DNA of 64,000 bases, from positions 1,666-65,665 of the IMG/VR virus record IMGVR_UViG_3300030090_003629. One strand, 5' to 3'. Under the pieces are notes generated by a model that worked only from the letters and a program-made list of their open reading frames with translations, was not told the origin of the DNA and made no database searches. This stretch comes from a virus (Duplodnaviria; Caudoviricetes). The translations under genes and the position numbers were made by a program. Positions 10,094 through 54,047 of this stretch are shown here, one piece after another. Position 1 is the first letter of the stretch; every line of letters begins with the position of its first letter.

Positions 10094-13000
10094 TTATCTA
10101 ATTAAAGAACTAGTTTCTTTTTTATCTCCCTCCATGTTATACACATCTCTAGCTATACTTCTTCTTACTGATGAATATGGAGCTAAATCATATAACAATG
10201 TTTTTGCAGCTTTAGAATCTCCCTTTTCTCCATAAGGTCCAGACCTTTTTATTTTATCTCCTCTTACAGATTGCCCTATCATTTCTGTAGCATTTTTTAT
10301 TGTGCTATAAGAAGCAGGAACTAAAGTGTAATTAAAGAATCTGTCGTAATCTGTAGTTACAAAAACATCATTAGAAAACTTTTTTAATGTTCTTATCATA
10401 TTAGGATCTGAGTCTTCATCATCTTCCATTATAGCTATTAAACTTAATAGCGTTATACCTATACCCATACCTCTAAGGTGTGCTGCTATTTCAGCTTTTC
10501 TAGCTTCATTAGAATTATCCCATATTGCTTTTAATTCTTTTTTACTTGTATTACCAGCTATATAACTTCTAAATAAATCTCTTACAAATTCACCTGTTGC
10601 CCTGTAGCTACCTATGTTAACTTTACCAAATCTGTCTATATCTTCTGCACTAAACCTGTCTTTTAATAATGTTACAAACCATTTTTTAAATTGTAACAAT
10701 GCTCTACCATAAGAATACATAGAAAGTAAACTAGCGTCTAAAGCTGTATAACCCTCACCGTGCAGTGTAGATATTTTATGATTAATTTGCATTACACGTT
10801 CTTCAGTTATTAAATCTGGATTATTAAACTCTTCTTCCGTAAGCTCTCCTAAAAATGCAGCCCCTTGTATATAGTTTTCTGTAGCGTCCATAAATATATA
10901 AGACCATTTTTCTAGTTTACCAAAAGCTCCTTTAGATTCTGACAAATGTATAAATTCATCAAAACTATATTCTACTATTCTAAATCTTTTTAGTATATCT
11001 CTAGATTCATATAGATTTTTAAAATAACGAGTTTCTCCTTTAATAAATTGTGCTCCACCTTTTTTTCTTAACTCTTGATATTTACCTGCTAATACGTTAC
11101 CTATACCTACAGTCATGTTAAATCCTAACAATCTTAAAGATGTAAGCCTTACAAAACTATCTATAACTTTGTCTCCTGTTTTACCTAAAAAGCTTTCTTG
11201 TTGTCTGCCTTCTATAAATCCTTCTTTCCACCATCTTGTTAAATAATTAGCCGCATTTTTATTGTCTAAACCTTTGTTAAATGCTATAACAGAATCTATT
11301 AAAATAGACACTTTAGACATACCAGTAAAAGGATTTTCTATACCTTTAGACTTTTGTAAATCTACGTTTTCTCCATTCATAAATAATGAACCTCTTATAA
11401 ATTCTAACAACGAACTGTTAATATCATAAGATATATTTTTAGCTTTTATTCCTCTTCTTCTTTCATATTCTTCTATTAACTCTCTATCTACATCTGTAAT
11501 GTTATTATCACCCATTAATTTTTTAATCATAGCACCATTGTTTATTAATGCATCATACTCCATATCACTTAATAATATTTTAGAGCCATCCTCATTAATA
11601 CCTTTAGCTTTTAATTCTTTAGCTTTTCTTCTTAGTTTATCTAACTCATATATCTGTCTACCAGATTCTAAAGTTAATTTACCTGTCCTGCCTTTATATA
11701 CATCGTACTTCCATTCGTATAAAGTTTTTAAAACTCTATTGCCGCTTTTATCTAAACCGTATACTTTTACACGCTCTATATCATAAGTGTCAATAGTATT
11801 ATCATATAAACCAAATAAACTGTTTCTTGACATTTTTTCTAATGTACCCATTTGCATGCCTGGTATTATATATGTGTCTGTGTTTAGTAATTCCTGTGCA
11901 ACATTTTTATATTCTGTATAATATGCTCTTTCTTCTTTTGTTAAATTTTTATCAGCTAACTCTTCTTCAGTTAATAATCTAATATTACCATTTTCAAATG
12001 TAGCTATATTTCCATATATATACTTGTATCTAGCATTAGTGTCAAAACCTTGTCTTACTCTTTCTAAAACGCTTAATCCTTTATTTTTAGATCTAACTAA
12101 ACTCCTGTTTGCTTTTTCTAGTCTATCTTTATATCTTTTAAATGCTCTTAAATAGTTTCTATATTCAAATTGTATTTCATTTATTAATAACTGTAACTCT
12201 GGTCTTTTAGAAGATATATTATTAGATGTTAACCAGCTTTCTAATCCAGACATATCTTCTTGTTCCACACCATCTAATCCAGGAACTTTATATTTATATC
12301 CTTGTCGCTTTCCATCTGCTTTTAATTTTTTTGTTTGTATTTCAAATAATCTTTTTCCTATTTCTTTTTCTACTATATAAGAAATATTTTTAGTTGCAGA
12401 ATTATCCATAGATCTTAACTTAAAAGCTCTTTTTCTTAAATCTTCTAGATTGTATTTAGACAATGGTTTCTTTTCTAAACTAGACTCAAACTCTTGCACT
12501 GTTTTATAGTGTTCTCTATATTTAATATATTTATTATATAATTGTTCAGCTATTTTAGACTCTTTAATTTTTTGTATATCTATGCCTTTGTCAGCTAAAT
12601 ATTCTGAAAAAGATAAAATATTATTATCACCAGATATATAATCATTATTGTATGTTGTAGAAGAAGAAATAACTTTTTTTGCTTTTTTTGTAGGATCTAT
12701 AAAAGTATTATTTTGTTTACTTGCCTTGTCTATTTTTTTATCAGTAGTTAAGTTTTTATTTAATTCGTCAATTATTGCATCATCTAATTCTATGCTATCT
12801 AAATTATCAAGATTACTCATATCATTAACATCATCGTATTTAAATTCTGGTTCTTTAGTTTGATTATTTGTTATAATTGTATTTATTTCATCATTAATTT
12901 TATTAATATACTCATTGTCAAAAAAAGGAATAAATGATGCTGCCCCTCCTGCTCCTCCTGTAAATCCAAAGCCATTAAACTCTGCTTCTAGTTCAAATAT

Positions 13001-16000
13001 TAAATTCTTTTCTTCTGGCAATAAATTAGAAAAAGATTCTTTTATTTGATCAATAGATTTATAAGATATAAAATCTGTTACTTCAACTCTATTTATTACA
13101 ACCTTGTCTCCTTTTTCTGTTACTTCTATTATTTTGTCTGTAAAGATATTATCTTTACCGTACTTTTCTTTCAGTGATATAAAATTATCTATTAAAGTTT
13201 CTCTATTTTCTATTTTAGATAAAAAACTTATATTATTTTTTAAATCATTTATTATAACTCTATTTATTATAGCGCTGTATTTATCTGGATATAACATTTT
13301 TAACTCAGCATAAGATTCATTATTAATTATGCCTTGCATATATGGTGTAAACCTTATATCTGTAACAAAAGCTCTTTCTAATACAGTACTGAATAACTTT
13401 ACAGCATGCTCTACAATACTGTTAAATCTACTTTCTCCTAGTTGGTAAGGTAATGATAGACCTCCACTTTTTCTATCATTTATAGTAATAAAATTTGTTT
13501 GTAGTTTCTTAATTTTTTGTGTTATTTGTCTTAACTCAAATGGATTTTTTTCTATCTTTTGATGTACAGTAAAAGCTTTTCCAAAAGGATTTACAACATC
13601 CTCATTAAATTTGTCTAATGCATATAACATTATTATAGCATCAAATTCAGCATTTCTGTTTTTTCCTTTAGTTAATAAGTCATTTATATTTATATTAATA
13701 CCTTCTCCCTTTAGTCTAGAAACTATTGTTTCCCACCTTTTTTGATCTATTCCTTTTCTTTTTTTACCAGTAATTTTTTGTTTATAAAAGTAAGTTAATT
13801 TTTTAACACCTTGACTTTCAAAAAATTCAGCCAACTCATTTACATTATTAACTTGATCTTCTAAAAACATTTCTTGTATGTCGCTATCTTTAGAAATATA
13901 GTTTTTACTTCTCTTGCTTTTAAAATCAATATACTCTTGTACTATTGGGCTGTTAAATAGTAATGTTAAGTCATTTAAAGAATAACCTAACCTTCTTAAC
14001 ATAATATAAGAAAATATCGTTTGTTTATTTAATCCTAGTTTACTTGCATATTGATGTTTTGCATTATCTAAAACTATATTTAATAGTTGTGCAACCCCAT
14101 ACCAATTACCCACTCCGTTTTCTAATTCAGGATCATCAAAAAACTTATCGTGTGTAACTGCTTCAGACTCTCCTTTTAACGTTATTTTAAAAGGTAATTT
14201 TTCTTCATTATTAGAAAATATATTAAATGTTCTTTGTAATGCAGCAACTATACCTACCAATGATTTTGCAGGAACATTATCGTTAAACATTTCACTATCT
14301 CCTAAGGGGTGCAATTGTGATTCTTCTTTTTGTTTTTTATTTTTATAAAGGCCTTTAGATTTAGCCTGTTCTATTGCATTATCCGAATCAGATACAAAGT
14401 CAATATTAGCTGTAATTTCATTTGTTCTTTTTTTATTACTAACTAATTTTACATACAAATCAAAAAACCTGTTAGATTTTTTTCTCCAAGATTTACCCCT
14501 TTCATTTACCTCCTTTTCTGTATACTTAAAATTCATATGAACAGAATCTCCATCTAAATCTGCCCCCCAAAACTTACTTACTTTTGCTGGTATAGTTATA
14601 TTAGAAGTTGGTGTATCATCTATTTGAGCATGAAAATCTTTTACTACAAACACAGAACTAGTAACCTTTCCGTGTGAAGGTACTCTTGTACCAATAAATA
14701 AATCTCCTACCTCTACACCTTGATCTTTTAAATATCCAGGAACTATAGCTTCAGAAGCAACTATACTTTCATCTTCTGCAAACAATCCTTTTTCGTATGA
14801 TTTTAAATTCATGCCTAAACTTGATGACTGATATGCTATAGATCCTTTTGTATACATTTTAGTTCCTCTATGTGTTATCCTACCTCTAGCTATAGAGTTA
14901 TAAGAAGCATTTGCAAATGGGTATCTAGGATCTAATGTTTCAAAAACAGAATCAAATAATACCCCATATATATCTGCACTAACAGAACTAGCAAAAGAAT
15001 CTCTTTCTTTGTATACTGTTTCTCTAGTAGCGGTATTATTCATAATTAAACCAGCTTTTCTATTTCTGCTTTCGTTATTAGCTTCCATAACATCTTTTCT
15101 TAAACCATACATTTCTTTAAGTATAAGTTTTTCTTCTTCTGTTATTATGTTTGTAGCTAAATTGTAAAATAATTGTGATGGAAAAAATCTTTCATCTGTT
15201 TGCTTATCTAACTCTAATTGTATACCAAAACCTTCTCCTGACAAGCCTCTATATCCAGTATCGTCTTTATACAACAGGTCTTGTCTTTTCATAATATTAT
15301 CTATATTGTCTAAATTTTTAATATCATGTATATCTTCTTTTGTTCTTATGCCATCTAAAAATAATTTAGCAGCAGACTCTGACGCAGCTATTACTAGATT
15401 ACCTGGTGTTTTAGAAATATCTTCTACTTGTTCTTGACGTTTTCTTAATACCTCTCCTATATTTTTTAAGTATTCACTTTTAGCTTCTAACTCTCGTGTT
15501 AATGTATGTACAGCAAATTTTAAATATGTTGTCTTCCCTTTTAACTTACCTTCTGTTTCTGTATAATGATAAACAAACTTAAATACATTACCTACTTTTT
15601 GTGACTCTCCATATTTTTCTCTAATAATTTTTGCTTGCTCAGGCAATACATAACCCATAGCATCATTTTCTATATAGTTATTATCAGTTTCTTCTGTAGT
15701 AATCTTATTATTATCATCAATAAAATAATCTTTTATTATAATAGGCTCTATCATAGTGTTTCTATCAAACACAACATGACTTGCTATTGCACCTGCAGCT
15801 CTTTTTATATAATCTATTTCATCTTTAGATTGCCTGTGATCATGTACAAATAGTTGTTGCGCCATAAACTTATTAGCAATATGTGATGTTAAATATGCTT
15901 CTATAGCTTTATCTATATCTTTTGTTTCTAATATGTCTTCATTGTTTATGTATAAATCCTTATTAATTCTCATGTGTTGTTTAAAATCAACAACTAATTT

Positions 16001-19000
16001 CTTAATGTTTTTTATTCTATTGTTTTCAATTACATAAGGAAATATATCTGATCCTTTTTGATACTTTTTGCCATATGCTGGATTTCTTTCAATTCTTGAC
16101 AATAATTCTTTTCTTGTTTTACTATTGTGAGCCATCATACTTTCTATATAATATCTTCTGCTTTTGTCAGAAAATACAGCTATAGGCTGATCGTATATTA
16201 TTGTTTCTTCTTTATTTTTTATTCCTTGATTGTATTGCGATAAAAATTGTAAAAAATCACCTGCAACTAATTCTTTAGGAGTTACATAGTTTAGCTTAGA
16301 AGCTCTACCTTCATATTTTACAGCTTCAGCTTTAGCAATTAACTCACGCATCATACCAGAGTGTATAGTAAACCTAAATGGGTTTTGACTAACTTTACCA
16401 TTGCTTCCAGTTAGCACCCCTCTTGCTTTTTTACTATACAATAAATAAGAATATATATTATTATCTGGATGCATTATATCATCTTTAGATATATCTATTT
16501 CTTCATTAATTATATTAGCTATATTTTTTGCTCTATTATGTAAGCCGTTTTCTTTATTAAATATACTGACACCGTCACCCATAACATTATCTACCATAGA
16601 CAAATAATTAATAGCTCTAGATGCCACAAGACCTTCTGTTAATATTACTTTTAACTCGCCTTGTTTTCCAAACATTAATCCATAAGCTTTGTATTTTCCT
16701 GTTTGTACAGTAAATTTACCTTCTTTATCAATACCCATTAAAGATTGATATTTTAAATTAGGTTTGCCATTTTTAAATCTTTTGTGTTCAAATAATAAAT
16801 TCCATAAATACTGTCTTTTACCATCAAATAATATTTCAGTATTTAATAAAGCTCTTTTGTCTATTAGCTTACCTTTTGCATTATCATCTAAAATTATATC
16901 TAAATATTTTGTTGCTGCTATATATTTTTGCTTAGAAGTAGGTTTTTCATTTTTAAATAAATTATCATATACTTCAGCTAACTTTTTCCCTTTTTCAGTG
17001 TTGTTATTTAAATCTTTAAGTATGCTACGTATAACGCCTTGCTCTAATGTTTTACTAATAGTTCTGTATTTTTTAAAAGACTTAACAGCTCTACGTCTTG
17101 ATTTGTCATATTTTATTTCTAATGCCTGATGTGATAAAACCTCTATTGTAATACCTTCAATGGGTCCTTTAATTTCCATTAACTTAGCGTTAGTTAAAAT
17201 TTTATCATTATTATATAAATTATCTAACAAACCTAACATAGCTTCTATTTCTCTACTTCCAGACTTTCTTACATTTGGTATAAAATCATATGGATCATAC
17301 ATAGTATTTTTAGACATGCTATATAAATCGTATAATAATTTTTTTCTATCTATTACTTTATCAGGATTTTGATTGTTATAAACCTCTACTATTTTTTTTA
17401 TAAAATTAGAAGTTGTTGTAGGTAAGGCTATTTGTTTTACATCATCATCAAAATTTCTTTCTGCACCAGGCTGACTTTCATTACCATCTTGACTTACATC
17501 TTCTTCTTTACCAATACTTTTTCCTATATTAGACAATATACGATCTAGTTTATCGTCTGCTAATTTTAAATCATTTGGTCTTGTTTTTTGTCTAACTACA
17601 GCTTCAACTTGCGATTTTATAAAATCTACATCTTTTATTGTTAATTCACTATCCTTTGCTATTTGTTCAACTACTCTATCTGCAATTTGTTCTGATGTTA
17701 ATCCACGCCCCATAAAATCACCTATAGTTTTAGATAAAGCAGAATACGTAGATCTTTTTCTAATTGCTTTTTTCTTAGCTTTATTTATCGGTCCATATGC
17801 AGAATTTTGCATTACAGGTACTGTTCTGTTTCCTGAATTAAAGTCTAAAAGTATATGTTTTATTGCAGCTTCTAAATCTAAACTTTGTATATTGTCAACT
17901 GATAAATCTAATAATCTTTTTGCGTCTTCATTAGATGTTAGCTTTTTTACTTTCTTATAAAACTCTATTAAATCTTTTTCTAATCTTTTTTGTGTTGCGG
18001 TTCCTTTTATAACAGCATCAACATTATCATAAGAATAAAATTCTAAAGTTCTTGAAAATGTTTCTTCTAACAAATGCCTTTGTCTGTCTACTCTAACTTC
18101 TTTAATTCCTTGTGCTTTTAATTGTAGTCTAAGCTCATTAAACAATTCCATTGTTCTTGTGCCGTCATTGTTTCTTTCTGCTATAGCAATGTTTTCTGAA
18201 ATACTTACAATATCACCAGTATAATCTGCTTTATTATTTAATGCGTTTCTATATATAGCTCCAATAGTAATATTTTGCCCATTAACTCTCATTAATGTTA
18301 ACTCAGGATATTCTTCTTGTGTCTTTTTGTATAATAAAGATTTAGGTAAAAGCTTTTTTATTCTTTTCATTAATGGAGTTTTTTCCATTAACGAATAATA
18401 TATATGTCCTGCTTCGTGTATAATATCAGATTGCCTAACTTCGTTTTCGTTTATCATAAGCGTAGCGCCTATTGCTAATGATGTAGCTTCTTGTCCATAA
18501 TCATCATACAATGCTTTTTGTACTACGTAACCCTTAGCTCCAGGAAAGTTTTTGTTTATAATAGACCTAGTTAATGCGGAAGCAGCTAAACCTGAATCTG
18601 TATATACTTCTAAATTACGATTTAATAATATTGGATCATTTTCTTTTATAGTAGAAAATGTGCTTTTTATGAATTTATTAAAATTATCTTTTGTTTGCTT
18701 TACTGCGCCTACTACCTTATCTATACTTCTAGTTTCTTTTTTCTTTGCTTTTTTTGTTGTGGTTTCTTCTATTGTAAAATCTTGATATTGTAATTGTCCA
18801 ATAACCTTATTATCTACTATTACTTCAATTTTACTTTCATATAATGGTGCTCCTTTTTTATATTGAAAATATAATTTACCATTAACTTCTACCACATCAG
18901 CTTGCCCTGCTACTGGTTCTACTAAATTTAATTTAACATTTTGTGGTGTTTTAGTTAAAGCTTCTGCTCCAAAAGGTTTAGATGTAAAAAATTTGATAAC

Positions 19001-21937
19001 TTTACCTGTAGCTGTTTTTAATATGTAACTAGTAGTGCTAGCTCTACCTTCTTTATCTATTACCTTAGATATACTTGCAGCCTGTAATTTTATTCCTTTA
19101 TCTTTTAAAGATTTTTCTGTTTCTTTATACTCCTTAGTTTTAGGAGCTACGACTGATTGGTCTTTTTTTTTTACGTCTGCTTTTGCTCTTTTAGGGTCTA
19201 CTCTTTGTTTTTGATCAGAAGTTAGTCTATCAAACATTTTAGGATTCATAACTGTTTTGTAGTCTCCAACTTTTCCTACAGTATATGTCATACCAGAAGG
19301 TATAACCTTATCTGTTTTAGCGTCTCTTACTGTTGCTTGCGTGTACCCTTTAATAGCTTCTTCATTAGATATATTATCTCTCTTTTGTATCTTCTCATCT
19401 ATTACTGTTGCTGGGGTCCATCTATCTGCTGCTTCTGACCACTGTGTCCACTCTACTGTTCCGTCTAATCTTGTTACAGCTCTAAATCTAGCGTGCACTG
19501 ACCCGTCTTCCTCATAAACAGTAAATTCTTCTGTTTTAACAGGAACTTGCTTGTCTTTATATCTAGGTTTTTCTTTTTCTTTTGTTTCAGTCCTCTCTTC
19601 TTTTTTTACTGCCTTATCTACATCTCCTCTATTAATAACTTTATTAATTCCTGTACCTATTATTTTACCAGCCGCAGCAGCAGTTATTTTTCCAGCCTCT
19701 AATGCTTTTAATAAATAATCTTTTGCTGTAGATGTAATTTTAGTTTTATCGTAATTTTTTATTTTTTTAATTGCCTCCTTAACTTCAACTGACTGTATCT
19801 TTTTTTTTCCTTTACCAAACAACCCCTTAACCCCTTGTACAACTTTAGATATAACTGACGGTTCTTGCTTTTTAGCATCGTCAGCTTTTTTTGCCTCTTT
19901 TTGCGAAAACTCTGTAACCTCATCTTTTGTTAGTCCTTGTACTTTAAACCTAGCATCTCTTTTTCCTGTTGACTTAGCTATTGGCGCTTTGTCTACTCTT
20001 AATGTATATATATCTTCTATTTCTCTTTCTAATACATTCATATCATCTTGCAATGTTTCCATAATAGATAGATGATTTTGTTCTGCTTTTTCTAATGCTT
20101 TCTTTTGTTTTTCTGGATTTTTTATATTTTCTTTTATATTAGCCCGATCTATTTCATAAGATTTCTTTTGTAACTCTTGTTGTTGTAAATTTCTAGATTT
20201 TCTAGTTTCTCTAAAAAATGCTTGCCTTGCTCCTTCTTCTGTTAATATACTATTTACAGTATGTTTTTCATAATTCTTTTCTGCTTGTTCTACAGCGGCT
20301 ATATATTCATCTGCTGTTTGTTGTGACATTTTTTTGTCCTTTACCATGTTGTTTATGTACTCTATGACAACAGAACCATCACCTCTATAGTTCCAAACGT
20401 TTAATGCTATTATGTTGTCTTGTACTTGTGCTTCTGCTGCATAGTACTGGTCAGGATCTTTTGCAGACTCAATTATTCTAGCATTTTCATTTATGGCTTC
20501 TTGATGCTCATTTAATGCAGAGATTCTTTCTGCTGCTGCATCAAAATATCCTCTTGCGCCTCCCATCGCTCCACCTAAACCTACAGAAGACCAAAATATA
20601 TCTCTTATTTCAGGACGTATATTTCCATAACTATCTTTTACCCAATCAGTCATTCCTAAATATTCTTCTCCTTTTGCTTGTTGTATATTTTTGTATTTAT
20701 TCCACTCTTGGTGAGTTTCTTGTATACCTTCTGTCAAACCTTCTACTGTAGCATATGCTCCTGCAGCAGGTAAAAGAGGTAATCTTTTTCGTACAGCATA
20801 GGACACTAAACCTCTTACCGAATCTTTATAATTTATTTTTTGTAATGGATTTAATAATAGTCTTTTAGCCATAGATTTACCTACACCTCCAAATAATAAA
20901 CCATATGATATTGCATCTGCACCAACCCACCATGCATTTGTTTTCATTACATCTGTAGCATGTGACGCTGCTTCATCTGGTGTAAATAATAAATTACCAT
21001 CTTCATCAGTATCTCTTAGCATTTCATTATACGCTTCTCCAGCTAAATATGCTCCTTCAGCCATGTTTGCTCCCAAACCACCACCTGCAAATGAGCCTAT
21101 ATTACGCATAAATTTTGTTTGTGCTAAACCTTTCTTGCCAGCATCAAAAGCTAACTTACCTAATATACCAGATCCCTGTATACCTTTGTTACCCATACCT
21201 ATACCTTTACCCATAGTACCAATAGGGACTCCCATAATTTTTTTAGCCTTATCTGCTTTTGATAAAGCTTTTGCTGACATCATTCCAAATCTTCCTAATA
21301 AAGCACCTCCTATTCTTGCTCCTGCAGTATATGGTATAGCAAATGACAATGCATAAGGAACTAATCTAGCAATTTTAGAGTTCCAAAATTCTGCACGGAA
21401 CATATCACCAAAAGTTACGTCTTTCATTTCATCAGACAATACTAACAAATTTTCATTTTGTTTTTGTGCTCCAATTTTTTTAAAATAATCACCTAGACGT
21501 GTAGTAGGTTCTGGATCTCCTGGTCTAGCCCACGCATTTATAAAATCTAAAGTTTCTCCAGTACCATACAATAAATCTCCAAAACCAGCTTTTATACTTC
21601 TTTCTAATTTTTCTCCTCCAGAACCAATCATAGATAATGGATCTAGTATTTCTTGATTTGGTGCAGAACCATATCGTAATCTATCTAGACCACTATATTC
21701 ATCTGCCGATATATCACTAGCAGCCATTGCTCTAGAATATTTGTTTAGCAAAGGATCATCTATATTTGCCTGTGCTACATTTTGAAACATTGCATCCATA
21801 GACATGGGCGTGTCCATTTCACTGTCATATGATTGTTGTATATCTTGTTGAGGTGTATTTATATTTACACTTTCGCTTTCAGCTAAATTGCCTAATATTT
21901 GATTTAACCCTGATGTGTAATCATTACTTTCTGCCAT
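10094..21937 (-). CDS. giant virion-packaged DNA-dependent RNA polymerase polyprotein (crAss-like)
   Basis: 3947 aa; RVPSHG followed by the catalytic GADLDGD (about 14546-14569); HEAGH zincin-like motif (18404-18418); lies after the cargo genes as in Crassvirales. Confidence 0.85.
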   Translation of the reverse strand: MAESNDYTSGLNQILGNLAESESVNINTPQQDIQQSYDSEMDTPMSMDAMFQNVAQANIDDPLLNKYSRAMAASDISADEYSGLDRLRYGSAPNQEILDPLSMIGSGGEKLERSIKAGFGDLLYGTGETLDFINAWARPGDPEPTTRLGDYFKKIGAQKQNENLLVLSDEMKDVTFGDMFRAEFWNSKIARLVPYALSFAIPYTAGARIGGALLGRFGMMSAKALSKADKAKKIMGVPIGTMGKGIGMGNKGIQGSGILGKLAFDAGKKGLAQTKFMRNIGSFAGGGLGANMAEGAYLAGEAYNEMLRDTDEDGNLLFTPDEAASHATDVMKTNAWWVGADAISYGLLFGGVGKSMAKRLLLNPLQKINYKDSVRGLVSYAVRKRLPLLPAAGAYATVEGLTEGIQETHQEWNKYKNIQQAKGEEYLGMTDWVKDSYGNIRPEIRDIFWSSVGLGGAMGGARGYFDAAAERISALNEHQEAINENARIIESAKDPDQYYAAEAQVQDNIIALNVWNYRGDGSVVIEYINNMVKDKKMSQQTADEYIAAVEQAEKNYEKHTVNSILTEEGARQAFFRETRKSRNLQQQELQKKSYEIDRANIKENIKNPEKQKKALEKAEQNHLSIMETLQDDMNVLEREIEDIYTLRVDKAPIAKSTGKRDARFKVQGLTKDEVTEFSQKEAKKADDAKKQEPSVISKVVQGVKGLFGKGKKKIQSVEVKEAIKKIKNYDKTKITSTAKDYLLKALEAGKITAAAAGKIIGTGINKVINRGDVDKAVKKEERTETKEKEKPRYKDKQVPVKTEEFTVYEEDGSVHARFRAVTRLDGTVEWTQWSEAADRWTPATVIDEKIQKRDNISNEEAIKGYTQATVRDAKTDKVIPSGMTYTVGKVGDYKTVMNPKMFDRLTSDQKQRVDPKRAKADVKKKDQSVVAPKTKEYKETEKSLKDKGIKLQAASISKVIDKEGRASTTSYILKTATGKVIKFFTSKPFGAEALTKTPQNVKLNLVEPVAGQADVVEVNGKLYFQYKKGAPLYESKIEVIVDNKVIGQLQYQDFTIEETTTKKAKKKETRSIDKVVGAVKQTKDNFNKFIKSTFSTIKENDPILLNRNLEVYTDSGLAASALTRSIINKNFPGAKGYVVQKALYDDYGQEATSLAIGATLMINENEVRQSDIIHEAGHIYYSLMEKTPLMKRIKKLLPKSLLYKKTQEEYPELTLMRVNGQNITIGAIYRNALNNKADYTGDIVSISENIAIAERNNDGTRTMELFNELRLQLKAQGIKEVRVDRQRHLLEETFSRTLEFYSYDNVDAVIKGTATQKRLEKDLIEFYKKVKKLTSNEDAKRLLDLSVDNIQSLDLEAAIKHILLDFNSGNRTVPVMQNSAYGPINKAKKKAIRKRSTYSALSKTIGDFMGRGLTSEQIADRVVEQIAKDSELTIKDVDFIKSQVEAVVRQKTRPNDLKLADDKLDRILSNIGKSIGKEEDVSQDGNESQPGAERNFDDDVKQIALPTTTSNFIKKIVEVYNNQNPDKVIDRKKLLYDLYSMSKNTMYDPYDFIPNVRKSGSREIEAMLGLLDNLYNNDKILTNAKLMEIKGPIEGITIEVLSHQALEIKYDKSRRRAVKSFKKYRTISKTLEQGVIRSILKDLNNNTEKGKKLAEVYDNLFKNEKPTSKQKYIAATKYLDIILDDNAKGKLIDKRALLNTEILFDGKRQYLWNLLFEHKRFKNGKPNLKYQSLMGIDKEGKFTVQTGKYKAYGLMFGKQGELKVILTEGLVASRAINYLSMVDNVMGDGVSIFNKENGLHNRAKNIANIINEEIDISKDDIMHPDNNIYSYLLYSKKARGVLTGSNGKVSQNPFRFTIHSGMMRELIAKAEAVKYEGRASKLNYVTPKELVAGDFLQFLSQYNQGIKNKEETIIYDQPIAVFSDKSRRYYIESMMAHNSKTRKELLSRIERNPAYGKKYQKGSDIFPYVIENNRIKNIKKLVVDFKQHMRINKDLYINNEDILETKDIDKAIEAYLTSHIANKFMAQQLFVHDHRQSKDEIDYIKRAAGAIASHVVFDRNTMIEPIIIKDYFIDDNNKITTEETDNNYIENDAMGYVLPEQAKIIREKYGESQKVGNVFKFVYHYTETEGKLKGKTTYLKFAVHTLTRELEAKSEYLKNIGEVLRKRQEQVEDISKTPGNLVIAASESAAKLFLDGIRTKEDIHDIKNLDNIDNIMKRQDLLYKDDTGYRGLSGEGFGIQLELDKQTDERFFPSQLFYNLATNIITEEEKLILKEMYGLRKDVMEANNESRNRKAGLIMNNTATRETVYKERDSFASSVSADIYGVLFDSVFETLDPRYPFANASYNSIARGRITHRGTKMYTKGSIAYQSSSLGMNLKSYEKGLFAEDESIVASEAIVPGYLKDQGVEVGDLFIGTRVPSHGKVTSSVFVVKDFHAQIDDTPTSNITIPAKVSKFWGADLDGDSVHMNFKYTEKEVNERGKSWRKKSNRFFDLYVKLVSNKKRTNEITANIDFVSDSDNAIEQAKSKGLYKNKKQKEESQLHPLGDSEMFNDNVPAKSLVGIVAALQRTFNIFSNNEEKLPFKITLKGESEAVTHDKFFDDPELENGVGNWYGVAQLLNIVLDNAKHQYASKLGLNKQTIFSYIMLRRLGYSLNDLTLLFNSPIVQEYIDFKSKRSKNYISKDSDIQEMFLEDQVNNVNELAEFFESQGVKKLTYFYKQKITGKKRKGIDQKRWETIVSRLKGEGINININDLLTKGKNRNAEFDAIIMLYALDKFNEDVVNPFGKAFTVHQKIEKNPFELRQITQKIKKLQTNFITINDRKSGGLSLPYQLGESRFNSIVEHAVKLFSTVLERAFVTDIRFTPYMQGIINNESYAELKMLYPDKYSAIINRVIINDLKNNISFLSKIENRETLIDNFISLKEKYGKDNIFTDKIIEVTEKGDKVVINRVEVTDFISYKSIDQIKESFSNLLPEEKNLIFELEAEFNGFGFTGGAGGAASFIPFFDNEYINKINDEINTIITNNQTKEPEFKYDDVNDMSNLDNLDSIELDDAIIDELNKNLTTDKKIDKASKQNNTFIDPTKKAKKVISSSTTYNNDYISGDNNILSFSEYLADKGIDIQKIKESKIAEQLYNKYIKYREHYKTVQEFESSLEKKPLSKYNLEDLRKRAFKLRSMDNSATKNISYIVEKEIGKRLFEIQTKKLKADGKRQGYKYKVPGLDGVEQEDMSGLESWLTSNNISSKRPELQLLINEIQFEYRNYLRAFKRYKDRLEKANRSLVRSKNKGLSVLERVRQGFDTNARYKYIYGNIATFENGNIRLLTEEELADKNLTKEERAYYTEYKNVAQELLNTDTYIIPGMQMGTLEKMSRNSLFGLYDNTIDTYDIERVKVYGLDKSGNRVLKTLYEWKYDVYKGRTGKLTLESGRQIYELDKLRRKAKELKAKGINEDGSKILLSDMEYDALINNGAMIKKLMGDNNITDVDRELIEEYERRRGIKAKNISYDINSSLLEFIRGSLFMNGENVDLQKSKGIENPFTGMSKVSILIDSVIAFNKGLDNKNAANYLTRWWKEGFIEGRQQESFLGKTGDKVIDSFVRLTSLRLLGFNMTVGIGNVLAGKYQELRKKGGAQFIKGETRYFKNLYESRDILKRFRIVEYSFDEFIHLSESKGAFGKLEKWSYIFMDATENYIQGAAFLGELTEEEFNNPDLITEERVMQINHKISTLHGEGYTALDASLLSMYSYGRALLQFKKWFVTLLKDRFSAEDIDRFGKVNIGSYRATGEFVRDLFRSYIAGNTSKKELKAIWDNSNEARKAEIAAHLRGMGIGITLLSLIAIMEDDEDSDPNMIRTLKKFSNDVFVTTDYDRFFNYTLVPASYSTIKNATEMIGQSVRGDKIKRSGPYGEKGDSKAAKTLLYDLAPYSSVRRSIARDVYNMEGDKKETSSLIR

Positions 21938-50237: not shown

Positions 50238-51178
50238 TAGAAACGTCCTCCTTTAGTAAAATTACGTCTTTTTACTGGGCGAGCAAAAGTTTCTAGCCCT
50301 AATATTTTTCTTTGCTCTTCTGTAATGCCTCCTCCCTTTCTTCTTTTATTACCGAAATTTAAATTCATTAAGGTTTTAGTAATTTCTGGGCTTATCATTC
50401 CAGCACCAAGAACACCACCACCTAACATTTTTGGGGGTTCTGGGTTAATAACATTTTTAGCTTGCATGCTAGCGATTAGCATATCAGCTATATTACTATA
50501 CATTCCCCCTACATTTTGATTCATAAGATCAGGAAGACCCAAATTAGATCTCATACTCCTGTTTGCTTCAATAAGCTCTTCTTTGTTACTGTGTGTAACG
50601 GGAACCCTAAAAGAAAGATTTGCATTTTGTTGATCAATTTGTTCTTGAATTGGGTTTGTTCCTGTAGCTTCAGGATAATTTGAATAAAATGGAGACGAAA
50701 ACTGCCTCATATCCATTTCACCCCCCATATTAAACTTCTCACTCATAGAGCCAATCTTCTCTGACTGTTTCTTATGCATTTGTGATGCTTTACTTAACTC
50801 ACCAGCAATTTTTTGTAAACTACTTTTTAATGTACCACCATGCTCAAACGAAGATACGTTCTTAGATATATACGGATTTAAAGCTATTAAAGGGTTAGCA
50901 TCCATGTTGCCCTCTGTTGGTTCTGATCCTCCCCCAGTACCTCCTCCATCTCTTTCACCTGACATTTGATTAATAGCATTTGCAGAAATCGTATTTAATG
51001 TATTGAATAAATTAGCAAGGTTACGATCAGGACTCATACCCATAGGTAAAGGCGCAGGTTTTCTAAAAGCTGACGGATTGGGTATTGACGGATTGTTTAT
51101 TGCTGGATTAATAGCAGGCATATCTGGTTCGTATATAGCTAGATTAGTTGGTCCTGGTGGTAAATTTGTAGCTGCCAT
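50237..51178 (-). CDS. low-complexity hypothetical protein, first gene of the late block
   Basis: Pro/Asn/Met/Gly-rich with FEHGG, FNMGG and FTKGG motifs. Confidence 0.6.
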   Translation of the reverse strand: MAATNLPPGPTNLAIYEPDMPAINPAINNPSIPNPSAFRKPAPLPMGMSPDRNLANLFNTLNTISANAINQMSGERDGGGTGGGSEPTEGNMDANPLIALNPYISKNVSSFEHGGTLKSSLQKIAGELSKASQMHKKQSEKIGSMSEKFNMGGEMDMRQFSSPFYSNYPEATGTNPIQEQIDQQNANLSFRVPVTHSNKEELIEANRSMRSNLGLPDLMNQNVGGMYSNIADMLIASMQAKNVINPEPPKMLGGGVLGAGMISPEITKTLMNLNFGNKRRKGGGITEEQRKILGLETFARPVKRRNFTKGGRF

Positions 51179-51201
51179 AGTATAAATATTTTATTTATTT
51201 A

Positions 51202-51209
51202 CAAAGATA
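51202..51209 (-). promoter_or_regulatory. Bacteroidetes-type -7 promoter element (TATCTTTG) heading the late block
   Basis: Intergenic, about 24 nt upstream of the ATG at 51178. Confidence 0.65.
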
Positions 51210-51304
51210 TATAAAAAATTTTATTTTTTTGTGAGGGAGTGATGCTATATGCTTAAATCCCCCCTGGTTTCTCAAAACTTTGGATACCGTACCCCATTTT
51301 ACCT

Positions 51305-51317
51305 TTTACTATTCTTA
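51305..51317 (+). promoter_or_regulatory. repeated early motif TTTACTATTHTTA (copy 1 of 6; others at 51524, 51989, 52680, 53335, 59196)
   Basis: Same 13-mer 30-41 nt upstream of six plus-strand ATGs. Confidence 0.6.
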
Positions 51318-51345
51318 CTCAGTATTAATCAATATATATATTATC

Positions 51346-51510
51346 ATGACAGATTTATTAGTTTGGTGCTTAATAGTTGCACTATCATTTGCAAAACTAT
51401 TCCTTTATGTTCTACTTATTGTAGCGGTATGGGTATGGATTAAGAAACACAGTCCTAAAACTGCAGAACAAATCAAGAACTATGTTCCATTTAAAAAGAA
51501 GAGTAAGTAA
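51346..51510 (+). CDS. small membrane protein (54 aa)
   Basis: Start reassigned to ATG 51346 (MTDLLVWCLIVAL...); long hydrophobic stretch and basic tail. Confidence 0.65.
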   Translation: MTDLLVWCLIVALSFAKLFLYVLLIVAVWVWIKKHSPKTAEQIKNYVPFKKKSK

Positions 51511-51526
51511 TTACTCTCTTTTTTTT
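51499..51526 (+). terminator. intrinsic terminator
   Basis: AGAGTAA-GTAA-TTACTCT followed by a T-run. Confidence 0.7.
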
Positions 51527-51560
51527 ACTATTATTACTAACAACTAATACATAATATACT

Positions 51561-51671
51561 ATGAAAGATATAATTTTATTTCCAATCTATCTTATTGTTG
51601 GTCTTGGAGTATTTATTTTTGTTAAAGAAATAAGACAAGAGATAATAATGAGAGTTAAAGAAGAGCTATAA
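51561..51671 (+). CDS. 36-aa single-TM micropeptide (not in ORF track)
   Basis: MKDIILFPIYLIVGLGVFIFVKEIRQEIIMRVKEEL*; has its own upstream motif and terminator. Confidence 0.65.
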   Translation: MKDIILFPIYLIVGLGVFIFVKEIRQEIIMRVKEEL

Positions 51672-51684
51672 TGCTCTTTTTTTT
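51661..51684 (+). terminator. intrinsic terminator
   Basis: AAGAGC-TATAAT-GCTCTT followed by a T-run. Confidence 0.7.
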
Positions 51685-51858
51685 AGTTATTTAATAAAAA
51701 AGTATAATTATTGCGTATTGAAGTGTGAGTAGTATACTCTATTAAAACCCTTATAATCATCATATAATAGCAATTATAAGCATTACTATTACTCTAAGTA
51801 GTTGATAATCAATCAGTTATTGTTTATTTATTAGATATTATATAAGTATAATATGTCT

Positions 51859-51984
51859 TTAATATATTTAGCTGATTAACTATCGTTATCTCTAATAGAT
51901 GGCGAAGTTATACAATTTATTTTACATTGTCAAGTCTTTCTAGCATTTTTTTATATAAATTATTATCATTAATATATTTAGCTG
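51859..51984. repeat. 16-bp direct repeat TTAATATATTTAGCTG
   Basis: Copies at 51859-51874 and 51969-51984. Confidence 0.75.
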
Positions 51985-52029
51985 TTTATTTACTATTATT
52001 ATTAAGTATTAACCAAATTTATATAAGAT

Positions 52030-52317
52030 ATGATTTTACATGAAATTAATTGCTCTTGCGGTTGTACAAGAGCTGAAAAACTAGACGAAAAGTGGGGTAA
52101 TTGCGTAAAGTGTGGAGCACCACACGACATACAGTTTAGCGATTACACTACACACGATGTTAAACTTACACCATTAAATGTAATAGAACAACGTGCTAAA
52201 GAACAAGCAGTAATAGATATGTGGAGAAATGATTTAATAAACTGGGATGATAAACCATTTATTAACTGGTCTACCTGCTTTCAAGTAGAAGATGAACAAT
52301 TTGGAGTGCCATTTTAG
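52030..52317 (+). CDS. Zn-ribbon hypothetical protein
   Basis: CSCGC...CVKCG; ends EDEQFGVPF. Confidence 0.65.
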   Translation: MILHEINCSCGCTRAEKLDEKWGNCVKCGAPHDIQFSDYTTHDVKLTPLNVIEQRAKEQAVIDMWRNDLINWDDKPFINWSTCFQVEDEQFGVPF

Positions 52318-52331
52318 GCATTCCATTTTTT
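52303..52331 (+). terminator. intrinsic terminator
   Basis: GGAGTGCC-ATTTTA-GGCATTCC followed by ATTTTTT. Confidence 0.65.
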
Positions 52332-52342
52332 AACCTAAACAT

Positions 52343-52649
52343 AAATAAGAAAGGTCAGAACAAAGTGGTTTCAGTGTAGGTTCTGCAGGACCGATTGTGT
52401 AATACATCAAAGAAGTTCCACACCTTTCTTATTTTTAACCTAAATATTAAAAAAAGGTGTTGAATGGTGTAAATCCAGACGTGGTAATACCAGCTTAATT
52501 GAGAATAAAACACTTGCGTTACCAACTCTCAGCCTTTTTTTTTATATTTGCAAACTTGTAAAATATAGAGGTGCCATCATATCTGTCGTAATACTTGCTT
52601 TTCTAAACTATATTTTATGCATAAGAGGTTTGGCACAGCCTCTTTTTTT
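52343..52649 (+). ncRNA. array of three stem-closed structured elements plus a terminal hairpin (candidate ncRNAs)
   Basis: 13-bp IR AAATAAGAAAGGT/ACCTTTCTTATTT (52343-52434); AAAAAAAGG/CCTTTTTTT (52449-52543); GTAAAATATAG/CTATATTTTAT (52558-52618); each contains GTAATAC. Confidence 0.55.
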
Positions 52650-52653
52650 ACTT

Positions 52654-52677
52654 CTCTCGCTCGCTTACGCTCGCTCG
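52654..52677. other. GCTC-repeat element CTCTCGCTCGCTTACGCTCGCTCG
   Basis: GC-rich CGCTCGCT direct repeat within AT-rich intergenic DNA. Confidence 0.6.
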
Positions 52678-52719
52678 TATTTACTATTTTTATTAATATT
52701 AATCATAAAATTTTATAAA

Positions 52720-53022
52720 ATGACAAAAAAATCAAAAACTACTACGAAAAAAGTTACTAAAAAAACTACAAAACCTGCACTAAACTTTGCTTCAGGTGTA
52801 TTTATTAAAGAAACTGAGTATTCTATTCTTATGGACTTTAATGCTAAAGCATTTTGTCAATGGATGAAAGACAATATAAATGAAAAAGGTTATGTAAGAA
52901 CTATAGTTAGAGCCAACAAAGAAGGTTCTAGATTTTCACATAACATGTCTTTAAATGATTATAGTCCTAAAGCTGTTGCAGAAAAAGCTGTTCAAGAAAC
53001 TGCTGAGGACTTACCATTCTAA
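52720..53022 (+). CDS. small putative ssDNA-binding protein
   Basis: Start reassigned to ATG 52720; N.KGYV motif and acidic EDLPF tail. Confidence 0.55.
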   Translation: MTKKSKTTTKKVTKKTTKPALNFASGVFIKETEYSILMDFNAKAFCQWMKDNINEKGYVRTIVRANKEGSRFSHNMSLNDYSPKAVAEKAVQETAEDLPF

Positions 53023-53261
53023 TGGGTATATTAGGTATATCATTCTTCGCTGCCGTTGGTTATTATATCATTGTATATAAAGCCATCGGTAGACGTAGAC
53101 TAGTTAAAACACAAACATTCTGGGACATACTATTTACTTTGTTGTTACCATTATTGTTTATTGGAACATTCAGCGGTTTGGCTACTGCTGTTATTGCAGG
53201 CGTGTTGTTTTCATGCTTTACAGCTATTACACCATCGCCTACAGAAGACGACTACAAATAA
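53022..53261 (+). CDS. small membrane protein
   Basis: Two to three hydrophobic helices. Confidence 0.65.
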   Translation: MGILGISFFAAVGYYIIVYKAIGRRRLVKTQTFWDILFTLLLPLLFIGTFSGLATAVIAGVLFSCFTAITPSPTEDDYK

Positions 53262-53264
53262 AAT

Positions 53265-53337
53265 AGGTTGAAAGAGTATCTTAACGAATATCCGTGATAA
53301 CACGGTACGGTAAACTAGAGCTCTTTCTTCCTTTTTT
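53265..53337 (+). ncRNA. stem-closed structured element / terminator
   Basis: GAAAGAG/CTCTTTC stem enclosing CCGTG-ATAA-CACGG, followed by a T-run. Confidence 0.5.
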
Positions 53338-53372
53338 ACTATTATTATTAATATAAATCAATACTTTTGCTT

Positions 53373-53771
53373 ATGAAAGAAAATAATTATGAGATAAGCG
53401 CACAATATCTCAAAGACTTAAAAAAATTACTAAAAGATAAAAACAGTAATATCAAACCTTATCACATTGCGCACGCATCATTTAGAAAAAATAATTCAGA
53501 TTTAATTATTAAAAAAGTTAATAAAATAGACTTTATTATTACATATCTAGACGGTACTAAACAAAAATTTCCAACATATAATGAACTTATGAGGATGACA
53601 AAAAATCTAAATGATCTATATCCTAAAAATAGAAGAGATTATATAGATAGGTATTTTAAGGTTATAAATGCTTTTCATAAGCACAGAGCTAAACTTAAAA
53701 AGAAAACAAATGCTATTGCTAACAGATTGTTACCCAATCAAGTAAAAGCATTAGTATCAAAAATATCATGA
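53373..53771 (+). CDS. basic hypothetical protein
   Basis: ATG at 53373, just after TACTTTTG. Confidence 0.6.
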   Translation: MKENNYEISAQYLKDLKKLLKDKNSNIKPYHIAHASFRKNNSDLIIKKVNKIDFIITYLDGTKQKFPTYNELMRMTKNLNDLYPKNRRDYIDRYFKVINAFHKHRAKLKKKTNAIANRLLPNQVKALVSKIS

Positions 53772-54047
53772 TGACGGTAATAACCATGGGCCATCATCAT
53801 AGGGTCAGGTCGGGCAACTATTTGTAGAATTAATAAAATTCATAATTAAAGTGTTCTAATTGCAGATAAACTTTAAGCATAGCAAGTTGACGTAAAGTGT
53901 TCCTGGCTCTATTTATATGTATGCTCCCTTCGTTGAAAAATACCACAGGTGATCATACATTTATAGAAAGGAGGTTAGTAAACATAACAAATAATAATTC
54001 AGCGGTTATACTTTGTGTGTATTTACAATTCCTCCTTTCTTTTTTTT
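53768..54047 (+). ncRNA. second array of four consecutive structured elements (candidate ncRNAs)
   Basis: ATGATGA/TCATCAT; ATAGGGTCAGG/CCTGGCTCTAT with G-U pairs; ATGTATG/CATACAT; AGAAAGGAGG/CCTCCTTTCT plus T-run. Confidence 0.55.

Follow-up and report, generated by a model that had tools for sequence, protein, structure and literature searches.

Two candidate structured RNAs and a strain-specific cassette between two small genes of a marine crAss-like phage

Our analysis concerns a stretch of about 330 nucleotides (nt) between two small open reading frames (ORFs) of a marine crAss-like phage, in which three stem-closed units stand one behind the other. The phage is represented by a 65,665-bp virus record (IMG/VR IMGVR_UViG_3300030090_003629), of which bases 1666-65665 form the 64,000-nt window that was analyzed and to which all positions refer. 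The reading we prefer, with a probability of roughly 0.6, is that the stretch consists of three unrelated pieces: unit 3 would be a small-RNA gene, unit 2 a mobile structured element, and unit 1 a strain-specific cassette. An original prediction, made from the letters of the window, had taken the three units as one array of related RNAs that share a GTAATAC loop; this apparent array is a chance juxtaposition within a cassette-shuffling hotspot. Units 2 and 3 are candidate RNA families that would be new, although their general kind is known.

Unit 3, a candidate small RNA gene

Comparison among relatives supports the view that unit 3 behaves as a conserved structured RNA element. Its predicted parts are the following.

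52543..52550, plus strand: match to the Bacteroidota sigma-A -7 box, TATATTTG (TAnnTTTG), with a predicted start near 52555
52555..52650, plus strand: unit 3, candidate small RNA of ~95 nt (homologs, RNAalifold, pair counts, covariance model, terminator scan)
52560-52568 (AAAATATAG) with 52608-52616 (CTATATTTT), plus strand: closing helix P1
52571-52576, plus strand: 5' segment GTGCCA
52584-52589, plus strand: invariant TGTCGT
52623-52628 with 52639-52644, plus strand: terminator stem, with a T-run to 52649
52629-52638, plus strand: terminator loop, with TGGCAC at 52631-52636

Relatives of the locus were gathered via three neighboring proteins, those of the downstream ORF B (6 loci), the upstream ORF A (6 loci) and a conserved ORF C of 79 amino acids (aa; 34 loci). 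A search with nhmmer and a seed alignment placed unit-3 homologs in 11 contigs anchored by these proteins, a pattern scan of metagenome contigs found at least 26 real copies among the 119 matches listed, and the family holds at least 31 distinct sequences, the window included. A first, loose pattern scan of IMG/VR gave only 2 real copies in 116 stretches, both on known contigs; in bacterial genomes the pattern matched 79 times, never with a real copy, and copies were found only on viral or metagenome contigs. Two close relatives, loci L001 and L002, whose ORF B is 95% identical to that of the window, carry unit 3 with few substitutions. TGTCGT is present in all 31 sequences, and in the 10 found via neighboring proteins it is likewise invariant, as are TTGTCGTA and the loop sequence GCACAG/AGCACAG.

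The covariation that the original prediction had anticipated among relatives is borne out for unit 3. RNAalifold, given a MAFFT alignment of the 31 sequences, predicts P1 and the terminator unaided, and with the loop pairing described below added, 95.9% of the cells are paired in the model-fitted alignment and 94.8% in the MAFFT alignment, as against 29-47% in controls with slid partners (model-fitted alignment). In seven pairs both partners have changed, as many as in only 2-3 of 500 shuffles, and none of the 500 attains the covariation score of 0.206 (against 0.124). Compensatory changes fall in four of the eight P1 pairs and two of the five terminator pairs; P1 alone appears as AGAATGC/GCATTCT, AGAATGT/ACATTCT, AAAGTGT/ACACTTT and AGAGT/ACTCT beside the AAAATATAG/CTATATTTT of the window. 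G-U pairs occur on the plus strand only, which fits that strand as the RNA strand. The terminator (52623-52644 and its T-run) qualifies as an intrinsic terminator, its stem being 100% paired in the 31 sequences, and relatives that do not have the unit-3 core keep the terminator with different loops. Run against the whole window, the unit-3 covariance model matches unit 3 and nothing else (79.7 bits).

Upstream of unit 3, a TAnnTTTG box with CAAA is found in 9 of the 31 sequences, the window among them, and a TAnnTTTA-like box inside a small hairpin in a further 14, while 6 copies lie directly 3' of the stop codon of ORF A and have no promoter of their own. An optional element, TTTG at -33, is not seen upstream of unit 3 in the window. 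The sigma-A box of Flavobacterium is placed at -12 to -5 in the portion of the literature source considered here (PMC9723704), and this spacing puts the predicted start of unit 3 near 52555 and its length at ~95 nt.

The terminator loop, UAGCACA in the family and UGGCACA in the window, is complementary to the 5' segment, GUGCUA in the family and GUGCCA in the window. In 18 of the 31 sequences this pairing spans 9-12 bp and runs into the 3' arm of the terminator (12 bp in 8 of them). Since the pairing reaches so far in these 18, and since the minimum-energy fold of the window uses it, an alternative fold is possible for unit 3. This is the ground for the main rival explanation of unit 3, in which it would be a cis-acting attenuator, riboswitch-like or protein-dependent: the 5' segment would invade the terminator's loop and 3' arm, block termination and allow read-through into the early genes downstream, with the UGUCGU region binding an effector. 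The six promoterless copies that directly follow ORF A speak for such a leader as well. Against it, the pairing in the other 13 sequences is confined to the loop and comprises only 5-7 bp; what lies downstream varies, being ORF B in some loci and an ORF-less module in others (L061, L068); and plain terminators not associated with a unit 3 are followed by the same leader motif, so that the genes downstream seem to have a start signal of their own. We consider an attenuator unlikely, and the three other rival explanations taken up below fit less well.

Unit 2, a candidate structured element shared between phages

The evidence supports, more weakly than for unit 3, that unit 2 too behaves as a conserved structured RNA element.

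52456..52534, plus strand: unit 2 core of 79 nt, GGTGTTGAAT...CTCAGCC, flanked by an A-run (52449-52455) and a T-run (52535-52543)

Conservation is confined to GGTGTTGAAT...CTCAGCC, a block 79-80 nt long and closed in the window by A7GG...CCT9, and the flanks do not align. A 20-mer from the interior recurs in 4 IMG/VR contigs, 3 of them with unrelated flanks, and a two-anchor pattern returned 22 stretches from IMG/VR, 13 of which are the element, in at least three contexts; identity is ~95% across unrelated phage contexts. On large phage contigs unit 2 stands 12-25 nt upstream of a DnaG-like primase gene, where it is 86-95% identical as compared to 59-66% in 280-300 nt of flanking coding DNA, and a different contig has it with a PolB-like gene on one side and a DUF932 gene on the other. 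In all three contexts it is co-oriented with the flanking genes. Because it sits just upstream of replication genes elsewhere, unit 2 probably acts as an RNA.

In the consensus fold, which combines a P1 helix with two hairpins, the loops accommodate both a 5-nt insertion and a replaced segment, and 2-3 pairs change on both sides, for example from A-U in the window to G-C elsewhere. The best score of a unit-2 variant (L403) against Rfam 15 is 11.4 bits. Among close relatives, L001 carries unit 2 within an aligned stretch that is 98% identical, and in L002 it is internally deleted, with the first 10 and last 5 bases left. In contigs of the one sample that contains the window, depth summed over the 5' part of unit 2 comes to 94 and 321 as against ~4 beside it, and several different sequences adjoin it; the depth and the varied flanks fit an element common to many co-occurring phages. 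A miniature inverted-repeat transposable element (MITE) was considered for unit 2 and rejected, since there is one copy in each of three records and one in the window, and no clear terminal inverted repeat.

The neighborhood of primase, PolB-like and DUF932 genes also raises a second alternative, in which units 2 and 3 would act as DNA, as protein-binding sites or a replication origin, and the very high conservation of unit 2 would indeed need no RNA fold. The G-U pairs in the helices of unit 3, which are A-C mismatches on the other strand, tell against this, as do the compensatory changes that preserve helices in both units, an orientation that always matches that of the flanking genes, and a terminator T-run that unit 3 has on one strand only. 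We judge a DNA role to be very improbable.

Unit 1, a probable strain-level cassette

Unit 1 lies between two copies of a leader repeat.

52327..52348, plus strand: linker/leader repeat, copy 1 (TTTTTAACCTAAACATAAATAA), a 22-nt direct repeat
52343..52434, plus strand: unit 1, a perfect 13-bp stem (arms 52343-52355 and 52422-52434) around a 66-nt interior
52432..52453, plus strand: linker/leader repeat, copy 2 (TTTTTAACCTAAATATTAAAAA), a 22-nt direct repeat

The two copies are 86% identical and enclose TTAACCTAAA, which occurs exactly twice in the 64-kb window, at 52330 and 52435, so that the original prediction was right in placing the same linker ahead of units 1 and 2. In one sample contig from a 96.7% identical relative, position 52345 is joined directly to 52451. 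The 105 nt skipped (52346-52450) correspond to unit 1 and one copy of the linker, which is the exact spacing of the two leader repeats. In L001 and L002 the place of unit 1 is held by a small ORF (82 and 73 aa, respectively) that follows the same TTTTTAACCTAAAC leader. From these sequence comparisons, unit 1 is a strain-level insertion or deletion.

The interior of unit 1 has no homolog among the loci, and a 20-mer scan of IMG/VR returned none; of two unit-1 20-mers sought in bacterial genomes, one gave a single chance match inside a G+C-rich gene and the other gave none. The arms and the following leader recur in L004 and L059 around an unrelated interior: 700 of 1000 shuffles align with the L059 interior at least as well. 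A pattern of the arms had 34 matches in IMG/VR, of which 2, both of the L004 lineage, are related and the rest are consistent with chance, and a MITE was rejected for unit 1 in view of this lack of related copies beyond the L004 lineage. A decayed ORF was rejected as well, the best tblastx match of 52318-52560 to all loci having an E value of 0.048. Unit 1 folds with a z-score of -2.83 on both strands, an effect of its closing stem, since the interior alone gives +0.43. As a side observation, the 3' arm of unit 1 (TTCCACACCTTTCTT) and the 5' flank of unit 2 (AAAAAAGGTGTTGAA), which stand on either side of the second linker, are 87% complementary (52416-52464 of the window); neither reading needs this alternative hairpin.

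The three units do not form one array

The sequence features that the original prediction described are all present: three consecutive stem-closed units (the 13-nt repeat of unit 1, A7GG/CCT9 of unit 2, and AAAATATAG/CTATATTTT of unit 3), the duplicated TTTTAACCTAAA linker, and a GTAATAC in each unit, at 52399, 52484 and 52588. The stretch is free of larger ORFs, though it does contain two short frames, one of 56 aa with a TTG start on the minus strand and one of 33 aa on the plus strand. What the prediction made of these features, namely a cassette of three related small RNAs (sRNAs) that share a T-loop-like GTAATAC loop and act as early decoys or processed sRNAs, does not hold up in comparison and is in our assessment highly improbable, although all units are stem-closed with GTAATAC on the same strand, their G+C content of 0.33-0.40 exceeds the 0.14-0.25 of nearby promoter spacers, and another crAss-like phage, phi14:2, makes abundant early intergenic noncoding RNAs (ncRNAs), as the part of the preprint considered here reports (10.1101/2020.03.07.982082).

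The common loop is the first point to fail. GTAATAC is found in 12 of the 31 unit-3 sequences, the others reading GTATTAC, GTAATTAC, GTAACCTAC and so on, and in unit 2 the window's GGTAATACC is GGTCATACC in 9 of the 13 other loci, which thus have GTCATAC. The UAAUA pentaloop is accordingly conserved in neither family (UCAUA in the same 9 of 13), and in the supposed TGG-TAATA-CCA hairpin UGG and CCA each pair elsewhere in the unit-2 consensus fold. A tRNA or T-loop RNA was rejected on the variation of UAAUA in relatives, on consensus folds that place GTAATAC outside hairpin loops, and on ARAGORN, which found 0 tRNA genes in the window. That all three units contain GTAATAC is coincidental. The word occurs 17 times in the window as compared to an expected 12.0 +/- 3.7, and some 7-mer common to three units of the same geometry turns up in 220 of 2516 placements (8.7%), or in 106 of 2516 (4.2%) once low-complexity words are left out. 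The window has 2 perfect inverted repeats of at least 12 nt with loops of 20-150 nt, and Markov nulls have 1.6 on average. A 7-mer in common with 16S rRNA was dropped as within chance expectation.

Kinship among the units fails in the same way. Units 1 and 2 were rejected as diverged copies of unit 3, the covariance model matching neither and a weight matrix of the core giving neither a positive score; unit 1 has no homolog, and the three have separate histories. The notion of structured RNAs survives for unit 3, through covariation, and more weakly for unit 2, through its conservation relative to its flanks, but not for unit 1. Comparison with Rfam 15 left all covariance-model scores for the stretch below family thresholds: the best match in the stretch, in a search of 51000-54000 at permissive thresholds, reached 23.3 bits against a threshold of 55, a search of 52326-52660 reached at most 17.5 bits, and 11 relatives had no match in the modules. 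A blastn search of 52000-53000 against a phage collection found no match.

Leader motifs and cassette shuffling

The wider region suggests how such pieces may have come together. The linker motif precedes the ATG of small early ORFs in L001, L002 and L004, and in the wider loci a T-run with TTTTTCAACTTAA, TTTTTAACCTAAA or TTTTTACTATT lies ~40 nt before the ATG of nearly every small ORF. One further motif of this kind follows unit 3.

52680..52692, plus strand: TTTACTATTTTTA, a copy of a motif that recurs ~40 nt upstream of early ORFs

This motif, TTTACTATTNTTA, has 7 exact copies in the window and 17 with at most one mismatch, where 4.5 are expected and none of 100 shuffles reaches the count. 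Its copies at 51305, 51524, 51989, 52680, 53335 and 59196 (plus strand) come after terminator T-runs and ~40 nt upstream of early ORFs, which makes TTTACTATTNTTA a candidate for a phage-specific early promoter or leader; by eye, the leader motif has no host -7 box. In relatives its place is occupied by TTTTTCAACTTAA or TTTTTAACCTAAA.

In T4-type phages, small non-essential early genes are separated by promoter-early stem-loop (PeSL) cassettes, as described in the part of the source considered here (PMC2839356). The corresponding signs are found at our locus: repeats flank unit 1, an ORF stands in its place in relatives, 105 nt are skipped in one contig, and the motif is enriched. Here too, a repeated terminator stem-loop with a promoter-like motif separates small early genes, and close relatives differ through insertions, deletions and replacements that have the motif at their borders. 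We take unit 1 to be a cassette that lies in a hotspot of shuffling and may be compared to the T4 PeSL regions, as far as the cited account of these goes (PMC2839356). In contrast to T4, the motif (TTTTAACCTAAA, TTTTTCAACTTAA or TTTACTATT) is not sigma-70-like, has no Bacteroidota -7 box and is a putative promoter; some cassettes are a stem-closed module that contains no ORF; and the likeness to PeSL cassettes, which are expected to form mini-circles, is one of sequence layout.

Among 19 loci, the window included, the intervals from ORF A to ORF C hold 15 candidates that are stem-closed, T-tailed, ORF-free and unrelated in their interiors, a count that is descriptive and has no null model. This leads to the third alternative, in which the whole stretch would be debris of PeSL-like cassette shuffling and have no RNA function beyond termination. 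Besides these 15 candidates, the presence or absence of unit 1 and of the unit-2 interior among close relatives, indels bounded by the repeated leader and interior folds that are no better than shuffles all agree with it. It leaves unaccounted for that unit 3 has been retained with compensatory changes over 31 sequences, that its core and loop are invariant, which debris would not be expected to show, and that unit 2 is far better conserved than the genes that flank it. Debris is in our opinion an improbable account of the stretch as a whole.

Three observations belong beside the leader motifs. The word ATATATTTAGCTG occurs at 51862, 51972 and 61056 (plus strand), 3 times against 0.56 expected; the divergent region that precedes ORF A contains two of the copies, and a similar word stands upstream of the ORF A homolog of L010. 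A second family of ORF-less modules, AGAATAGTG...CTCTCCTCT...AGAGAGGGGTATACTATTCT, with an outer helix and an inner CUCUCC/GGAGAG helix, is seen in relatives (L075 at 354-470, L281 upstream of its own unit 3, and L061 at ~1905-2100) and not in the window. Finally, a G+C-rich tract follows unit 3; it is kept in L001 and L002 and is unusual for an A+T-rich genome.

52651..52677, plus strand: G+C-rich CTCG/CGCT tract (CTCGCTCGCTTACGCTCGCTCG), separating the unit-3 terminator from the promoter-like motif that follows

Genome context

Several proteins of the window mark the phage as crAss-like. A 2399-aa ORF is a Crassvirus muzzle protein (PF25731, E 4e-135, in a Pfam search of the window proteins), portal and large-terminase PHROG families are represented, and the terminase shares ~30% identity with its counterparts in crAss-like, Flavobacterium and Cellulophaga phages. 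The minus strand carries structural genes up to ~51.2 kb, where the blocks diverge, and the plus strand carries small ORFs and replication genes (a DnaB-like helicase and DUF932) from there to the end of the window. The ORF-free stretch lies between ORF A and ORF B near the head of this plus-strand block, a position that is the sole basis for calling it early, and units 2 and 3 have the orientation of the block.

52030..52317, plus strand: ORF A, 95-aa hypothetical protein ending in ...FGVPF, upstream neighbor of the stretch (ORF list)
52302..52331, plus strand: intrinsic-terminator-like hairpin (52302-52325) at the end of ORF A, 9 pairs then TTTTTT (terminator scan)
52720..53022, plus strand: ORF B, 100-aa protein with a Lys-rich N-terminus and an ...EDLPF end, downstream neighbor (ORF list)

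Relatives of ORF A are 47-71% identical to it, and Pfam and PHROG searches matched neither ORF A nor ORF B to a family. Both proteins end in (V/L)PF, and ORF B, with its Lys-rich N-terminus, has an acidic ...EDLPF tail that resembles the C-terminal tip of bacterial single-stranded DNA-binding protein (SSB). Next to the muzzle ORF, a 3947-aa ORF on the minus strand (10094-21937) has no Pfam match at E <= 0.01. The motif DFDxD is absent from both giant ORFs of the window, which we do not read as evidence on a virion polymerase.

Comparison with known RNAs

The closest functional precedent, one that involves no homology, is the set of early intergenic RNAs of the crAss-like Cellulophaga phage phi14:2. 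Abundant early ncRNAs arise there from the intergenic regions g004-g005 and g005-g006, with their function given as unknown, and no common early motif is reported in the part of the preprint considered (10.1101/2020.03.07.982082). Judged from the same part, both phages are crAss-like, have a marine Bacteroidota host and contain, within the early region, ORF-free stretches oriented like the genes around them. The phi14:2 region is ~1.7 kb long, as opposed to modules of 80-95 nt here, and RNA expression was demonstrated for phi14:2 and is a prediction for our units. We took positions 2904-4602 of phi14:2 (L424) to be the ncRNA region of the preprint, a tentative assignment, as the numbering of the record skips g005; this interval has no annotated CDS, and short ORF calls were removed from the record in 2020. 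A homolog of the phi14:2 ncRNAs was rejected, there being no similarity to this interval in sequence or model; on positions 1-9000 the best score of the unit-3 model is 15.8 bits (E 0.22).

Unit 3 also resembles phage- or host-encoded sRNAs that possess a promoter of their own and an intrinsic terminator, such as the Rfp sRNAs of Flavobacterium psychrophilum, as far as the portion of their description considered here goes (PMC9723704), in having a match to the TAnnTTTG -7 box and a Rho-independent terminator, a length of ~95 nt, a structured body and a conserved unpaired stretch. It differs from them in matching no Rfam 15 family and in its confinement to viral and metagenome contigs. With riboswitch and attenuator leaders it shares a conserved domain closed by P1 and followed by a terminator, part of which can pair with an upstream segment, but no more than 18 of 31 sequences have a competing helix that extends into the terminator stem, the gene downstream is not constant, and no ligand class is suggested. 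Keyword searches found no published description of units 2 and 3, a result that does not amount to absence from print.

Discussion

In the reading we prefer, the stretch lies in a hypervariable early block, where a terminator hairpin, a T-run and a leader motif that recurs stand between the small genes. For unit 3, host RNA polymerase would start ~5 nt past the TAnnTTTG -7 box, near 52555, and the RNA would end at the intrinsic terminator near 52649; P1 would present the invariant UGUCGU as a single strand, a likely contact for a target RNA or protein, and the terminator loop may pair with the 5' segment, either as a pseudoknot or as an alternative fold. Unit 2 would be a single copy of a structured element of 80 nt that passes from one marine phage to another, unrelated one. 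Unit 1 would be a strain-specific, ORF-less cassette whose gain or loss came about through recombination of the two leader repeats, and it carries no sign of function.

A number of points weigh against this reading. The invariance of the TTGTCGTA and AGCACAG columns is partly a matter of ascertainment, because the pattern that retrieved 20 of the 31 unit-3 sequences had TTGTCGTA and AGCACAGYCCC as fixed parts, and the sequences are kin, so that cell counts are non-independent events. The pairing of the loop with the 5' segment involves four invariant pairs and a single compensatory case, the window itself, and RNAfold on the window favors the long-range helix over P1 with the terminator. When the unit-3 loop was compared with the phage genome, complementary runs of 12-14 (G-U included) were found, none of them outstanding and no null being applied. 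The folding energies, by which the original prediction had proposed to judge the stretch, do not favor structure either: the z-score against shuffles is -0.22 for the whole 403-nt stretch, -1.29 for unit 3, which is no better than shuffles, and -0.30 for the interior of unit 2 (-1.74 with its arms), the lower value of unit 1 coming from its closing stem. For unit 2, covariation amounts to about 3 pairs in 6 sequences, and its internal deletion in L002 implies that it is dispensable there. The skip of unit 1 is seen in one contig of depth 4.6, matched at 85% likeness. Promoter use, the RNA ends and the strand of the units, together with the transcription and RNA action of units 2 and 3 and the UGUCGU contact, are what we infer.

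A bolder proposal, which we regard as doubtful, is that units 2 and 3 each represent a class of regulatory RNA new to phages. In that case unit 3 would be either a switch, in which the 5' segment invades the terminator loop to control read-through into the conserved early operon of this crAss-like lineage, or an early sRNA that titrates a host factor via UGUCGU, and unit 2 would be an RNA module of 80 nt that spreads horizontally among unrelated marine phages and comes to lie upstream of replication genes, with a ligand-binding, protein-binding or catalytic fold.

The crAss-like phages are abundant, and their early program is poorly understood. Correcting the first reading of this locus removes an array with a common loop and leaves two compact RNA candidates, of ~95 and 80 nt, with defined boundaries, testable folds and no match in Rfam 15. 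Unit 2 stands out as a short non-coding element that is conserved above the genes surrounding it and is common to unrelated phages. Unit 3 may provide a simple model of how an uncultured crAss-like lineage uses the host polymerase and a structure embedded in a terminator at the start of infection.

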